From: a virus
Taxonomy: Duplodnaviria; Caudoviricetes
Direction: 5' to 3' (one strand)
IMG/VR virus record: IMGVR_UViG_3300024046_000019
Span: 1-60,555 of that record
Length of the DNA: 60,555 bases
The position numbers and the translations under genes are program-made. Below the pieces are notes generated by a model, which was not told the DNA's origin, searched no databases, and was given only the letters and a program-made list of their open reading frames with translations. Below, one piece after another: positions 5,680 through 32,752 of this stretch (position 1 is its first letter; each line of letters begins with the position of its first letter).

Positions 5680-6161
5680 GCCGCCGCCCTCTGGTCTGCA
5701 CGACGACTGCCGGATTTATCGGGATCGTAGGCATACCGATCCGGCGGGATGGTCAGCACGATCCCGAACTCGGAATGCCGGCGGAACATCAGGTCCAGAT
5801 ATTCGGTCATCTGCTTGATTTTCATCAGGCTGGTGACCGGCATTTCGGTGTCGCGGATCAGCTCGAGTTTGTCGGCGTGGGGTAGGGGCCGCACCAGGCG
5901 GTCATAGGTCTCCCGGAATTTGTCCGATCCCCGGCGCATGATCGGCACGCCGATTTCCAGCTTGCACCGCGCCCGCACGTCCTCGACGTCCTCGCCGGTC
6001 TGCTCGGAGATTTCGCCGTACCATTTGAAGGCAAGTTTGTTCTGCTCCTTTGAACGGTCGCGGCCTTCGGTGATTTCCACCGATAGGGGCAGCGGGCGGC
6101 CGTCGAGGAATGCCTTGAGCATATCCAGATCGGCAGGTGTCCGGATGACGCGGTGAACCAT
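5676..6161 (-). CDS. NinB/Orf-like recombination protein
   Basis: RSKEQN...WYGEISEQ...TSLMKIKQMTEYLD motif series. Confidence 0.7.
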   Translation of the reverse strand: MVHRVIRTPADLDMLKAFLDGRPLPLSVEITEGRDRSKEQNKLAFKWYGEISEQTGEDVEDVRARCKLEIGVPIMRRGSDKFRETYDRLVRPLPHADKLELIRDTEMPVTSLMKIKQMTEYLDLMFRRHSEFGIVLTIPPDRYAYDPDKSGSRRADQRAAA

Positions 6162-6164
6162 GGT

Positions 6165-6470
6165 TCAGTCCACCTGTGGGCTGAAAGGGATTTCGTCGTC
6201 AAAATTGGGCTGCTGGCGGCCACCACCGCCGTAGCCGCCGCTCTGCTGGGGCTGCCCACGGCCATTCCCGCGGTTGTCATCCTTCGGCTTCGGCGGGAAC
6301 AGCAGGATTGAATATTCGCCATCCACCGGTGCCGGCAGGCAATGCAGTCGCAGCGAATAGCCGTCTCGGTCGCGCATCTTGAAGGCAACGCCGATATTCG
6401 TGAACGCGGTCTTTTCCTCACCGTTTTGCTCGTACTTGCGCACGGCAACGGCTTCGTATCGGTCAGCCAT
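6165..6470 (-). CDS. SSB-like single-stranded DNA-binding protein
   Basis: Short beta-rich core, Gly/Gln linker and FDDEIPF acidic tail. Confidence 0.75.
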   Translation of the reverse strand: MADRYEAVAVRKYEQNGEEKTAFTNIGVAFKMRDRDGYSLRLHCLPAPVDGEYSILLFPPKPKDDNRGNGRGQPQQSGGYGGGGRQQPNFDDEIPFSPQVD

Positions 6471-25517: not shown

Positions 25518-25769
25518 ATGACGGTCCAGGCAATGTTCTACGTGAAGGAAATCAACCACCGCGCCACCCAGCAGCCGTGCGATGTGAATGTCGAGGTCAA
25601 GATGGGCGCGGCATTCGGCACCTATCTCAACGGCCTGCCAGAAGGCAATGGCGACTGGTCGAAGTGGACGCCGACCGGCGAGATGTCCATCACCATCACC
25701 AATCCGGCCGCAATCGAGCAGTTCGAGATCGGCGGCGTTTACTCGCTGACGTTCGAGAAGGCTGCATAA
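25518..25769 (+). CDS. Conserved small phage protein
   Basis: AAGGAG RBS; WSKWTPTGEMSITITNPAAIEQF motif. Confidence 0.75.
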   Translation: MTVQAMFYVKEINHRATQQPCDVNVEVKMGAAFGTYLNGLPEGNGDWSKWTPTGEMSITITNPAAIEQFEIGGVYSLTFEKAA

Positions 25770-25782
25770 CCAGTTTCAAGAT

Positions 25783-25987
25783 GGGGGCCTCTAGACCTCG
25801 CCCGATGGAGGGCAGGGTTGATGATGAGGCCCCCTAACCCAGCGCCGGTACTCACCCCGGCTAGACCCGCTATGTCTTCCGGTATGGTAGCGGTGATTGA
25901 AAATTGAGGACCGGCGCGCACGGCGCTCCCACAGGAGGCTAGAAGCGCGATAATTCGCCCGAATGGGCAAGTAGTTTGAGGCGTTTC
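25783..25987 (+). ncRNA. Putative structured RNA leader (three hairpins) preceding the tRNA array
   Basis: GGGGGCCTC/GAGGCCCCC, GCGCCGGT/ACCGGCGC and GAAGCGC/GCGTTTC stems, each with a CTAGA on the 5' side. Confidence 0.45.
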
Positions 25988-26063
25988 GCCGGATTAGCTC
26001 AGTGGCAGAGCAGCCCTCCTGTAAAGGGCAGGTCGCGGGTTCGATCCCATGCATCCGGCACCA
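25988..26063 (+). tRNA. tRNA-Thr(UGU), atypical C33
   Basis: Acceptor GCCGGAT/ATCCGGC, anticodon arm GCCCT-CCTGTAA-AGGGC, TTCGA loop, encoded CCA. Confidence 0.85.
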
Positions 26064-26065
26064 AT

Positions 26066-26141
26066 GGGGAAATAGCTCAGTTGGGAGAGCACCTGCCCTG
26101 CAAGCAGGTTGTCGCCGGTTCGATTCCGGCTTTCTCCACCA
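26066..26141 (+). tRNA. tRNA-Ala(UGC), atypical C33
   Basis: GGGGAAA/TTTCTCC with G3:U70, arm CCTGC-CCTGCAA-GCAGG, encoded CCA. Confidence 0.9.
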
Positions 26142-26145
26142 GTTT

Positions 26146-26221
26146 CTGGGTGTAGCTCAAGCGGAAGAGCGGCGCGTTTGGGGCGCGCATGTTGTCGGTT
26201 CGAGTCCGGCCGCCTAGACCA
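26146..26221 (+). tRNA. tRNA-Pro(UGG)
   Basis: C1-G72 acceptor, arm GCGCG-TTTGGGG-CGCGC, encoded CCA. Confidence 0.88.
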
Positions 26222-26228
26222 ATTTTTT

Positions 26229-26303
26229 AGCGGGTAGGAACGCCAGTGCGTTCGCCGGTTTCATACGCCGGATCAGCCGGTGCAACTCCGAGGCCCGCAA
26301 CCA
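26229..26303 (+). tRNA. Atypical tRNA with CAU anticodon (Met/fMet-like)
   Basis: AGCGGGT/GCCCGCA with 1:72 mismatch, arm CCGGT-TTCATAC-GCCGG, 6-bp D stem, TGCAACT T-loop, encoded CCA. Confidence 0.7.
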
Positions 26304-26305
26304 GT

Positions 26306-26391
26306 TCGAAGCGGTCAACACGGTGAATTCTGCCAGCCGTAGCCGGAGCAATCCGAGCGTAGGAGGGAACGGCAGTCCTCCACCGTTTCGA
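26306..26391 (+). ncRNA. Unclassified tRNA-sized four-way-junction RNA
   Basis: 10-bp closing stem, three internal hairpins, GCAA tetraloop, complementary loops CTGCC/GGCAG. Confidence 0.65.
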
Positions 26392-26396
26392 TCTCA

Positions 26397-26470
26397 ATCG
26401 GTCTAGCTCATTGGTAGAGCGGTGGTCTCCAAAACCATGCGACGGGGTTCGATTCCCTGGACCGGTGTCA
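26397..26470 (+). tRNA. tRNA-Trp(CCA); 3' end encoded as TCA
   Basis: ATCGGTC/GACCGGT acceptor, arm GTGGT-CTCCAAA-ACCAT, G73. Confidence 0.85.
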
Positions 26471-26474
26471 GTTT

Positions 26475-26562
26475 GGAGCAGTGGCCGAGTGGTCTATGGC
26501 AGCGGTCTTGAAAACCGAAGTGTCGCAAGGCACCGTGGGTTCGAATCCTACCTGCTCCGCCA
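26475..26562 (+). tRNA. tRNA-Ser(UGA)
   Basis: GGAGCAG/CTGCTCC acceptor, loop CTTGAAA, long variable arm, G73-CCA. Confidence 0.92.
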
Positions 26563-26634
26563 AAATTGAGGCTTCGGTTCGGACGCTGCCATGGAATGGC
26601 GTCCATCAGTGGACCAGATAACGCCTCAATCCCA

Positions 26635-26919
26635 TTACCGCTTCGAGCCTATCAGCCGAGCCCCGGCGCGCGATCCCTTTCGCCAGATCAATTCACACGC
26701 ATGGCGATACTCACCAATGACAAGGGTGAATAGGGCGGGGATGGTCGCGGCCTCGGGTATCTTCAGCATGATCCCGGAAGGCGATACGTTCACCACGGAG
26801 ACCTCGACCGTATCGGTGCCGGACGAAATTTCAGCCGGCCCCACCAGCACTGGCGGCTCCCGTAGTTCTTCTCGTCTTTCCGTCAGTGCTTCCATGAGCG
26901 CCGTGTATCGCGCCGTCAT
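26635..26919 (-). CDS. Single-domain PilZ protein (start may be 26895)
   Basis: RxxxR (RREELR) and NxSxxG (NVSPSG) motifs; CELIWR. Confidence 0.8.
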   Translation of the reverse strand: MTARYTALMEALTERREELREPPVLVGPAEISSGTDTVEVSVVNVSPSGIMLKIPEAATIPALFTLVIGEYRHACELIWRKGSRAGARLIGSKR

Positions 26920-30450: not shown

Positions 30451-31892
30451 CGTTCGACATCACGGTCCGGCACCCCGAATACGACGCTTTTGCGCCCTCA
30501 TGGGAGCTGATGCGCAACGCCTTTGAGGGTGAGGACGACATAAAGCAGGCCGGGCAGAAGTATTTGCCCCTCAAAAATGGCCTTGCGAAGCTCATGGAGA
30601 GCACATCGCATCGAGCCTTAGCCCAGGCTGCTTACGATGCATACAAGGCCCGCGCCGAGTTTCCTGATCTCGTCGCCCTCACTGTCCGGGGTGCGGTTGG
30701 GACGATCCTCGACCAGGCCGCCGAAATCGAACTGCCGGCCGAACTGGAGCCATTGCGCGAGAAGGCCACGCGCGATGGCCTGACGCTCGAGGCGCTGCAT
30801 CGGCGCATCGCTACCGAACTGATGACCACAGGCCGGTATGGCATCCTTCCCGGCATCGATGACGCGGGAAACCCGTATCTTGCCGGTTACGTGTCCGAGG
30901 CCGTCATCAACTGGGACGTCGACGAGCACCAGACTGCTGATTTTGTGGTGCTCGATGAAACTGGCTCGGTGCGCAACCGTGAGACCAACCAGTGGGAAAC
31001 GGTCGAGCAGTACCGCGAATGCTATGTGGAGGGCGGACGATACAAGGCGCGGGTCTGGACCAAGGTAGGCGAAACGCTGGCCCCGGGTGAGGAAACGGAG
31101 GCCCTGGACCGTAAGCGTCGGCCACTCTCATTTCTCCCGATGGTCTTCATCAACACCAATGACCTACGCCCCGACCCGGACGATGTGCCGCTGTATGGCC
31201 TCGCCAAGCTATCGGTACGCATCTATCAGCTCGACGCCGATCTGCGCCAGACATTGCATTACACGTCTGAGCCGACGCCCATGGTCTCGGGCTATGACGA
31301 TCCTCAGGACGCCATCAAAAATGGCCAGGTGCCGCAGGGTATCGGTGGAACCAATATCTGGGTGCTGCCCAAGGACGGCCGCGGCGAATTCCTCGAATTC
31401 TCCGGGGCAGGGGCAGAGGCCCAGCACAACGAAATTCAGAAGGCCTATGATCGGGCCGTGATGTTCGGCGCCCAGATGCTGGCAGAGAAGGGCAATGCGA
31501 ACGAAAGCGGTGAGGCCAAGCGGGTGCGGCTCGATAGCCAGCACAGCACGCTCAAGGGTATCGCCATGACTTCGGCCTCTGGGCTGGAGAAGGCGCTGCG
31601 CAACGTGGCGATCTGGATCGGCGCGGACCCGGAGAAGGTCAAAGTCGCGCCGAACCTTGATTTCTTCGACCACACACTTTCGGCGCAGGAAATCGCCGCC
31701 ATCGTCAAGGCCTGGCAGGACACTGCCATTTCGTGGCGCACCGCGTTCGACCGGCTCAAGGCCGGCGGTGTCGTGCCCGAGGATCGGACTGCCGAGGAAG
31801 AACTGGCGCTGATGGATCAGGACCAGTTCGGCAACGAGGCAGAGCGACGCGATGTGCTGCCTGCGCCCATTTTTGAGCGCCAAGCCGTCTAG
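30447..31892 (+). CDS. Portal protein (DUF4055-like)
   Basis: Follows terL; HPEY...YLP...YDAYKARA, ESGEAKRVR; 481 aa. Confidence 0.88.
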   Translation: MTFDITVRHPEYDAFAPSWELMRNAFEGEDDIKQAGQKYLPLKNGLAKLMESTSHRALAQAAYDAYKARAEFPDLVALTVRGAVGTILDQAAEIELPAELEPLREKATRDGLTLEALHRRIATELMTTGRYGILPGIDDAGNPYLAGYVSEAVINWDVDEHQTADFVVLDETGSVRNRETNQWETVEQYRECYVEGGRYKARVWTKVGETLAPGEETEALDRKRRPLSFLPMVFINTNDLRPDPDDVPLYGLAKLSVRIYQLDADLRQTLHYTSEPTPMVSGYDDPQDAIKNGQVPQGIGGTNIWVLPKDGRGEFLEFSGAGAEAQHNEIQKAYDRAVMFGAQMLAEKGNANESGEAKRVRLDSQHSTLKGIAMTSASGLEKALRNVAIWIGADPEKVKVAPNLDFFDHTLSAQEIAAIVKAWQDTAISWRTAFDRLKAGGVVPEDRTAEEELALMDQDQFGNEAERRDVLPAPIFERQAV

Positions 31893-32752
31893 CCGAGCAA
31901 TGCGGCGAGGGGAGCGATATAGGGTGAGAATACCGTCATGTGGTTGGCGATGCTCGCGATGAAATCACTGTATGCCTTGGCATAAGAAGGCTTATCTCCT
32001 TGTGATTCTCGCATACCCTCGATGGCGGCTATGGCCTTCCCTCGATCAATTCCGTTAGTGATTTCCTCGTTTGCCAGATCAAGTAGGCGGTCGAATAGTT
32101 CCGACGAATTGGTTGACTGTGTACCGTTGATATCACCGGACGAATTTGCGCTTCCCAAAGTGCCAATAAATTGACCAATATTTCCAACGGTGAATGTGGC
32201 CATCGCGGTTTGCGCTTGAGCTTTTTCGTTGGCATTGAACGACAGGCCTATGCCGACAATGCCCTGTTGCTCCATCCGCACTGCCCAGTCTAGGGCCATG
32301 TCCCGCACTGTGTTGATAATTGCCTGAACCTGAGTGACCGCAAGATGGTTGGCCATCTGGCCAAATTCGACGCCCATTTGTTCGTTCATCATTCGGATGA
32401 AACTGGCTGGAAACTGGACTTCGATATGCCCGCCTTTTGACCGTTCAACCAAATCCTCAAGAGACGAAATTGATTGTCGTACCGGCGCCTGTGAAATCAG
32501 TTCCTGATCTCGATCCGATGCCATCATGATTGGTATCCAGCCTTGAAATGGATTGAGCGCCTTTGGCCGCCCAACGAGCTGTCGGTAGCCAGGGAGCTCG
32601 CCTGTGTGCCCTTCAAGCTCCATTTGGACCCAACCCTCTAGGGCCGGAAGTGAAAGTTTCGCTGCGGCTATTTTGACTTTTCGAAGGATAGTTGAGACAG
32701 GAACGCTCGGATCGAGGGCATCTCGCTGTATTTCTTCAATCAATCCGGCCAT
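31889..32752 (-). CDS. AbiTii-domain protein (moron)
   Basis: LIEEIQRDALD...STILRKVKIAAAKL....WVQMELEGH...LPGYR...NPFQGWIP; antisense and lower GC. Confidence 0.8.
   Translation of the reverse strand: MAGLIEEIQRDALDPSVPVSTILRKVKIAAAKLSLPALEGWVQMELEGHTGELPGYRQLVGRPKALNPFQGWIPIMMASDRDQELISQAPVRQSISSLEDLVERSKGGHIEVQFPASFIRMMNEQMGVEFGQMANHLAVTQVQAIINTVRDMALDWAVRMEQQGIVGIGLSFNANEKAQAQTAMATFTVGNIGQFIGTLGSANSSGDINGTQSTNSSELFDRLLDLANEEITNGIDRGKAIAAIEGMRESQGDKPSYAKAYSDFIASIANHMTVFSPYIAPLAALLG

Follow-up and report, generated by a model that had tools for sequence, protein, structure and literature searches.

The closest known kind of RNA to the one described here is the RNA antitoxin belonging to toxin-antitoxin (TA) systems of type III. 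The element in question occupies positions 26306-26391 of an IMG/VR provirus record of 60,555 bases, the whole of which is called the window, and lies within a phage array of transfer RNA (tRNA) genes. It is a folded RNA and belongs to a family of structured RNAs, here the kissing-loop family, which is absent from Rfam 15. Phage PhiTE carries a pseudo-ToxI, a phage-borne mimic of such an antitoxin. In the type III systems ToxIN, CptIN, TenpIN and AvcID, as presented in the available portions of the sources, a non-coding RNA (ncRNA) is coupled to a protein toxin (PMC5772629; PMC8860590; PMC10511110; PMC5449768). The kissing-loop family shares this coupling, with neutralization by binding as the proposed mode of action, and in both cases a phage holding the RNA alone would escape the toxin. 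Type III antitoxins consist of tandem repeats that lie upstream of their toxin gene and on its strand, whereas the present RNA is single-copy and convergent and folds into a four-way junction with kissing loops. Its predicted toxin has a BECR/PBECR-like fold instead of that of ToxN and in many cases forms the C-terminal part of a virion protein as a domain.

PBECR stands for the Barnase-EndoU-ColicinE5/D-RelE fold. Fusions of MuF head proteins with PBECR domains were predicted to be packaged and injected ribonucleases (RNases), according to the available sections of Iyer et al., 2017 (PMC5512222). A short open reading frame (ORF) for putative immunity follows 89.4% of 191 MuF toxin genes in the corresponding sections of Jamet et al., 2017 (PMC5576092). 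The loci studied here resemble these polymorphic toxins in the Phage_Mu_F N-terminus, the predicted C-terminal RNase, the location in a packaging/head module and the protector expected downstream. The downstream slot is filled by an RNA gene on the opposite strand, in contrast to the small ORF of the described systems. An RNA partner is unmentioned in the available text of PMC5576092 and PMC5512222.

Colicin D offers a further analogy. Its immunity protein ImmD is a tRNA mimic. The proposed shared logic is a tRNase of BECR fold that would be blocked by a macromolecule imitating its tRNA substrate; ImmD is a protein, whereas the candidate here is an RNA, and the fold similarity of the partner protein to colicin D is modest (Z 5.3, 4.7). 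In phage phi29, the loop words of the packaging RNA (pRNA) pair between molecules, building a ring. The kissing-loop RNA is likewise small, phage-borne and linked to head genes, and it has two covarying complementary loop words, but the secondary structures differ, and the kissing-loop family also accompanies free-standing RNase genes away from head operons. The tRNA cluster of phage T4 encodes the stable RNAs species 1 and 2 (rnaC, rnaD), with unassigned function and no known toxin partner. Compared by description only, they are similar to the window element as non-tRNA small RNAs encoded between the tRNA genes of a phage and presumably liberated in the same way.

With tRNA itself, the family has in common a length of 75-100 nt, four helices around one junction, a last arm that passes into the closing helix without a linker, a single nucleotide between arms 2 and 3, and contacting loops in arms 2 and 4; the window copy is placed within a tRNA array. 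Unlike tRNA, the family lacks the 7-nt anticodon loop and the CCA end, has a third arm of approximately 3 bp to more than 20 bp and a J1/2 of 4 nt, and forms a Watson-Crick kissing helix of 5-6 bp in place of the tertiary D/T pairs.

Structure of the element and its family

The element comprises the following parts.

26306-26391, plus strand: whole RNA element, an orphan copy of the kissing-loop RNA family; the family core, with a 7-bp P1, is 26309-26388
26306-26315, plus strand: 5' strand of P1, paired with 26382-26391 in 10 bp including one G-U
26309-26315/26382-26388, plus strand: inner 7 bp of P1, equivalent to the family helix; all 7 family pairs vary on both sides
26316-26319, plus strand: J1/2, CAAC; the family consensus is YGAC, and locus L101 also has CAAC
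26320-26340, plus strand: P2 hairpin, stem ACGGT 26320-26324 / GCCGT 26336-26340, loop GAATTCTGCCA
26330-26334, plus strand: kissing word of loop L2, CTGCC, paired with 26371-26375
26342-26358, plus strand: P3 hairpin with a GCAA loop at 26348-26351 and A26356 bulged; the arm varies in the family
26362-26381, plus strand: P4 hairpin, GGAGGG 26362-26367 / TCCTCC 26376-26381, loop AACGGCAG; short-loop subfamily
26371-26375, plus strand: kissing word of loop L4, GGCAG, partner of CTGCC 26330-26334
26382-26391, plus strand: 3' strand of P1, partner of 26306-26315

For the 86 nt, folding to the minimum free energy (MFE) returns precisely this four-way junction (-34.9 kcal/mol, z -3.04); as good a value was reached by 2 of 200 shuffles. 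An extra A in the window, between P4 and P1, pairs with T26315. The single-sequence fold beats chance only moderately, and the case is carried by the family evidence, i.e. the score of the family model and the covariation of stems and loop-loop contact. A covariance model, R2, was built from 16 relatives with the window left out. It scores the window copy with 44.6 bits (E 1.2e-8) and, across 1.23 Mb, has just two other matches, L055 and L038. The family set comprises 89 model matches (87 distinct), including the window, from phage contigs and mostly alphaproteobacterial chromosomes. One copy per locus was found in the 89 loci, and tandem repeats were not seen.

The family fold is a cloverleaf-like four-way junction, closed by P1, with P2 and P4 as short arms of fixed length and P3 as a variable one. 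In the alignment of the 16 relatives, compensatory changes support P1, P3 and P4. Among the 87 distinct sequences, 97.1% of the stem cells are paired, versus 75.8% in shuffles and 33-54% in slid registers, and 19 of the 24 stem pairs vary on both sides. P2 (ACGGU/GCCGU) is without covariation: three pairs are invariant, and two vary on one side only. It is also conserved in copies found by the model or by the protein.

The contact between the P2 and P4 loops is absent from R2, and its test is therefore independent of the model. Reading each loop from its 3' end gives standard pairs at all five inner positions in 84 of 87 sequences, versus 1873 of 7482 non-cognate combinations (25%). Approximately 20 variants of the word pair occur, among them CUGCC/GGCAG, CUCCC/GGGAG, CUGCA/UGCAG, CUACC/GGUAG, CUCGC/GCGAG, CCCCC/GGGGG and CUGUG/CACAG; the words of L038 are GCCAA/UUGGC. 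Across the family, the kissing helix measures 5-6 bp. The strand of the RNA is settled by 70 G-U versus 16 A-C pairs, by GC-rich hairpins with U-runs on the 3' side of several chromosomal copies, and by the window copy, which runs in the direction of the tRNAs.

The window copy has the family layout: P1, a 5-bp P2, a variable P3, a 6-bp P4, one junction and no linker between P4 and P1. In the register of the family, at least five standard pairs join the 3' part of its L2 to that of its L4 (CUGCC/GGCAG). An earlier note, made from the letters of the window, had proposed a tRNA-sized ncRNA with a Watson-Crick contact between its loops. All four helices and both loops were recovered where that note had drawn them, with the kissing words CTGCC at 26330-26334 and GGCAG at 26371-26375. 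The MFE fold and the family covariation bear out the proposal of a discrete-looking structured RNA, and the covariation check that it had recommended for the loop pairs came out positive. Two details hold for the window copy and not for the family. P1 has 10 bp in the window, an extension by three pairs of a family helix of 7 bp. The GNRA tetraloop in place of an anticodon is present as GCAA and is shared by L038, but it is not conserved, since P3 of the family is a hairpin variable in length and sequence.

The window copy falls into a short-loop subfamily, in which L2 has 10-11 nt and L4 has 9-11 nt and ends in AGU; at least 12 further copies show this layout. It groups with short-loop copies possessing the partner gene, and its nearest relative in the alignment is L162. 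A subfamily comprising many MuF-linked copies (for example L135, L178, L200 and L209) has an additional small hairpin in L4, placed before the kissing word and frequently capped by a GNRA- or UUCG-like loop.

No known RNA class was recognized. Nothing in the stretch 26222-26396 was called by ARAGORN or Rfam. A scan of 25900-26700 gave no Rfam 15 match for 26306-26391, even at a permissive E<=10, in agreement with the earlier statement that this is not a tRNA and that its family is unfamiliar. The tRNA model RF00005 (cutoff 29 bits) and the Rfam pRNA model did not match over the element at E<=10, the latter not at its gathering threshold either. A tetraloop in P3 replaces the 7-nt anticodon loop, L4 reads AACGGCAG, and the 3' flank is TCTCA. 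The window copy and the chromosomal copies matched no Rfam 15 family in any scan run. A literature search, covering texts with supplements excluded, returned no description of this RNA family.

Relatives and distribution

The first relative, L055, was a weak 17-bit match to a single-sequence covariance model among 80 terminase-related loci and showed compensatory changes. A degenerate pattern from the window and L055 sequences retrieved four further viral contigs. In contigs representing one genome per species, it matched 15 stretches, of which 13, mostly from Alphaproteobacteria, contain the whole motif; the remaining pattern matches, L103 and L105, lack it and give no match to the model. A looser pattern gave at least 120 stretches in viral contigs. 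Eighty loci were kept, and the 64 containing a model match constitute the 64 viral copies. A model search across the class detected the RNA in at least 3 of 151 genomes, including the centre genome G003, which is a rough lower bound because few first-look candidates were scored.

Simpler searches were unproductive. Exact words from the element had no match in viral contigs or genome contigs, and a pattern of the two loops alone gave five chance matches, all without the fold. A tRNA-Trp word search led to unrelated large arrays only. With blastn, the element had nothing significant in the 80 terminase-related loci (64-89% terminase identity), and a comparison with INPHARED phages matched tRNAs and nothing else. 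The terminase-related loci (L002-L081) contain no tRNA array; 30 of the 80 carry one tRNA (L017 two), mostly tRNA-Met(CAU), 1-3 kb upstream of the terminase.

The adjoining gene

A single protein family accompanies the RNA, either as a protein of approximately 137 amino acids (aa) or as the C-terminal domain of MuF head proteins of approximately 400 aa. In 10 of the 13 chromosomal loci, a homologous ORF of approximately 137 aa lies immediately downstream on the opposite strand, i.e. convergent, and nothing else is conserved around the pair. No conserved protein ORF was found upstream of the free-standing RNase, and hence no conserved protein antidote there. Among the viral copies, an ORF with the partner domain is located within 400 nt in 48 of 64, in 48 of 48 cases on the opposite strand, its 3' end adjoining or overlapping that of the RNA. 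In several phage copies the overlap with the ORF end amounts to 12-25 nt.

Phage_Mu_F and the partner domain occur together in 9 of 12 tested neighbour ORFs (approximately 400 aa, Phage_Mu_F N-terminal). In L130, the gene order is a portal-sized ORF, the MuF fusion, the RNA in antisense, which fills a gap of approximately 115 nt, and the next structural gene. The family thus displays the layout of MuF toxin and immunity genes, with Phage_Mu_F, a toxin domain and the RNA directly downstream, in the slot of the usual MuF immunity ORF; the window does not.

Searches were also started from the protein. The domain was detected in 10 of 401 alphaproteobacterial genomes, and the RNA was adjacent and convergent in six of them. 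With one C-terminal domain as query, the RNA was adjacent in three of three viral loci, one being the query's own contig. The partner family has 976 representatives at E<=1e-3.

Upstream of the RNA in L096, L099, L101 and L107, and partly in L104, a shared motif with three GANTC sites was noted at a distance of approximately 60-100 nt (GGGGATTC-N7-GAATC ... TTATGATTCG). The motif may serve the chromosomal RNA genes as a promoter or as a site for a regulator.

The partner protein

No library names the partner protein at threshold. An AlphaFold2 model was obtained with a predicted local distance difference test score (pLDDT) of 88.9 and a predicted template modelling score (pTM) of 0.82. The top structural match is the toxin BrnT (Z 7.0; Foldseek probability 0.99, E 0.03). 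Further matches include a TA toxin from Salmonella (Z 6.4), 7vd7, three CdiA-CT toxins (Z 5.4-6.0), colicin D (1tfk and 5znm, Z 5.3 and 4.7) and RelE (Z 5.2). The Z values are middling, and the matches carry weight because almost all of them are RNase toxins of the BECR/RelE kind. PBECR3 (PF18812) matched below its cutoff of 30 bits, with 17-21 bits in 4 of 33 representatives and 28.3 bits in the L163 MuF fusion. In the ESM Atlas, the clusters closest to the partner contain PBECR2, PBECR3 or MuF_C (score 0.93). From the predicted fold and the sub-threshold Pfam matches, the partner is placed among RNases of the PBECR/colicin-D/BrnT type.

A histidine, H53, is invariant and follows K52, and the last strand carries S-T-x-H-R. 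These residues fit the colicin-like BECR site as outlined in the available parts of 10.64898/2026.08.28.747851 and PMC5512222.

Orphan copies and the tRNA array

No match to the partner ORF was found anywhere in the 60,555-base window, which makes the window copy an orphan. The partner is also absent from five viral records with lone copies (L038, L055/L091, L092, L095). Lone copies tend toward tRNAs. In L092/L102, the RNA directly follows tRNA-Met; in L038, it precedes by 17 nt a tRNA-like gene (6103-6177) with an anticodon undetermined by ARAGORN; in L055, it lies approximately 350 nt after a tRNA; and in the window it is inside the array, on the same strand as the tRNAs. The embedding in a tRNA array had been taken as a feature of the RNA in the earlier note. 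As a trait of the family it was not upheld, a tRNA being within 300 nt in 0 of the 64 pattern-found viral copies.

The array of the window and the cassette in it are composed as follows.

25988-26562, plus strand: host tRNA array, in the order Thr, Ala, Pro, CAU-like, element, Trp, Ser
25988-26063, plus strand: tRNA-Thr (ARAGORN and Rfam)
26066-26141, plus strand: tRNA-Ala (ARAGORN and Rfam)
26146-26221, plus strand: tRNA-Pro (ARAGORN and Rfam)
26230-26303, plus strand: tRNA-like sequence with CAU anticodon directly upstream of the element, a diverged homologue of an initiator-like tRNA-Met
26302-26468, plus strand: cassette of element and tRNA-Trp, 167 nt, with the direct repeat CAGTT at 26302-26306 / 26469-26473
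26397-26467, plus strand: tRNA-Trp with CCA anticodon, A1-U72 and 3' TCA, without encoded CCA (ARAGORN and Rfam)
26475-26562, plus strand: tRNA-Ser (ARAGORN and Rfam)

A joint of 26301 to 26469 is present in one contig each of three metagenome runs (X3, X12 and X4, from two studies), aligned at 85% likeness and with a short side of 23 at one joint. Related arrays without the 167-nt cassette therefore exist. No contig from four sequencing runs covers 26310-26357, which has no bearing on whether the RNA is expressed.

The CAU-like sequence can be aligned to the single initiator-like tRNA-Met upstream of the terminase in related phages. It has an aberrant D arm (6-bp stem, 4-nt loop) and a weak T arm with three good stem pairs. 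ARAGORN and the Rfam tRNA model did not call it, and a Tymo_tRNA-like match of 34.1 bits is below the cutoff of 40. A simple scan of 25600-26800 for promoters and terminators found nothing.

Several observations were made alongside. CCA is encoded by Thr, Ala, Pro, the CAU element and Ser, and tRNA-Trp alone has TCA instead. A small ORF at 26635-26919 (minus strand), weakly matching PilZ (E 4e-5), is convergent to the array end. A sub-threshold sX4 match (36 bits, cutoff 70) extends over tRNA-Ser and the following hairpin, 26461-26618. In the morphogenesis region, an ORF with an AbiTii domain (E 7e-43) is located at 31889-32752 (minus strand), directly after a portal-like DUF4055 gene.

Some lone copies have features of their own. 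In L055 (829-915) as well as L092, L093 and L094, the lone RNA is followed by a conserved extension of approximately 90 nt with an extra hairpin, which is absent from the window; in loci of the L055 type, a terminator-like hairpin with a U-run comes after the extension. A gene with a BrnA antitoxin domain faces the lone RNA in L055 (917-1576, minus strand) and in L136 (497-946, plus strand), and in L055 a T5orf172/MUG113 domain is joined to it. BrnT, the best structural match of the partner protein, is the toxin to which BrnA is the antidote.

Proposed function and alternatives

The orphan RNA is read, at somewhat better than even odds, as an immunity factor or antitoxin against PBECR-like RNases that the phage keeps as a counter-defence. 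The family RNA would bind and block the adjoining RNase. It may act as a pseudo-substrate that has the shape of a tRNA but offers no anticodon loop to be cut, by analogy to ImmD and colicin D. Having its own convergent promoter would allow the RNA to be made in the lysogen while the late operon is silent. The window RNA would be co-transcribed with the tRNAs and freed by tRNA processing, its 3' end being set by the 5' processing of tRNA-Trp. There it would shield the phage or lysogen from PBECR RNases of host modules or from those injected by rival phages. The guess in the earlier note of a decoy for tRNA-targeting defences agrees with the constant PBECR/colicin-D/BrnT-like neighbour and with the window RNA being without that gene. 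In a fuller version, the RNA is immunity for a virion-delivered BECR RNase and acts as a pseudo-substrate with its elbow locked by the kissing helix, temperate phages and bacteria exchange RNase and RNA as a pair, and the lone RNA was mobilized with a tRNA gene as a small cassette within tRNA arrays; this combination is plausible, at somewhat less than even odds.

Several points weigh against an immunity function of the RNA. The partner was undetected at 16 of the 64 viral and 3 of the 13 chromosomal copies, and the RNA was not found beside it in 4 of the 10 protein-bearing genomes. Phage copies abut or overlap the toxin stop codon and leave no room for a terminator, so that an antisense action is also possible. 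P3 varies freely, and J1/2 and J3/4 exceed the lengths in tRNA, which reduces tRNA mimicry to a resemblance. The window copy is off-consensus, with 44.6 bits versus 60-100 for most copies. With Z at most 7 and a best Foldseek E of 0.03, the structural matches reach a middling level, and all Pfam matches to PBECR3 are below the cutoff. Most loci were fetched by patterns fixing P2 and part of L2, which biases both the invariance of P2 and the census.

An unlikely alternative, though the strongest of those considered, regards the RNA as a working partner of the MuF-PBECR protein, either an RNA used in assembly or packaging or a cofactor packaged along with the protein, maybe forming an intermolecular ring via L2 and L4. 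The RNA lies within head-morphogenesis operons, beside portal and MuF genes, and covarying complementary loop words are also a hallmark of pRNA. The PBECR domain of Mu gpF is described as inactive and possibly RNA-binding in the available text of Iyer et al. (PMC5512222). This role is at odds with the free-standing chromosomal pairs outside any head operon and with the orphan RNA in phages without the protein. P2 and P4 are fixed in length (5 and 6 bp) and P3 is variable, as expected of an intramolecular contact. The invariant H53 and S-T-x-H-R suggest an active enzyme, and the Rfam pRNA was unmatched.

A cis-antisense regulator of type I-like action, or a transcription barrier at the 3' end of the toxin/MuF mRNA, would act without protein binding and is judged improbable. 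The orientation is always convergent, and the overlap of 12-25 nt with the ORF end in several phage copies is what such a regulator would show. Antisense pairing has, however, no need for approximately 45 near-invariant nucleotides, a tertiary contact and compensatory changes. The overlap is short or absent, hairpins separate both genes in chromosomal copies, and a target gene in cis is missing for the orphans of the window, L038, L055 and L092.

Equally improbable is a functionless, decaying relic in the window, carried into the array with tRNA-Trp. Its 44.6 bits place it among the lower-scoring copies, it lacks the UUC of the common L4, its J3/4 and L4 are shorter, the adjoining CAU tRNA is itself degenerate, and related arrays do without the cassette. 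The four helices and the 5-bp Watson-Crick helix between the loops are intact, however, and P1 is even lengthened to 10 bp. The short-loop layout recurs in the at least 12 other copies, several of which adjoin MuF-PBECR genes (L163, L164, L165, L185).

A degenerate tRNA gene or a chance fold of the spacer, as the tRNA size, array position, cloverleaf topology and single-sequence z of -3.0 might suggest, is very improbable in view of the missing tRNA-model match at E<=10, the missing ARAGORN call and the 88 relatives outside tRNA arrays that share the covarying fold. Three further candidates were rejected: a riboswitch, the next gene being convergent or unrelated; transfer-messenger RNA (tmRNA), also in two pieces, with no ARAGORN or Rfam call; and a mimic of the alanine acceptor (G-U at the third pair, 7-bp P1), the pair varying freely and no copy ending in CCA.

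Biological meaning

From an odd slot in a tRNA array, a well-supported new RNA family has emerged, with an unusually clear kissing helix in approximately 20 covarying variants. Its apparent partners belong to the PBECR RNases on MuF head proteins, a class whose targets and immunity have been open since its prediction in 2017. Should the RNA be the immunity factor, it would explain how lysogens survive injected RNases and would add an RNA branch to the immunity of polymorphic toxins. It would then be the first component of polymorphic-toxin immunity to consist of RNA and would represent a new class among the counter-defence RNAs of phages. The pair is a tractable RNA-protein system for structural work, and the RNA is a compact natural candidate for an RNase inhibitor made of RNA. 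The window copy suggests that non-tRNA genes within phage tRNA arrays can be anti-toxin decoys.

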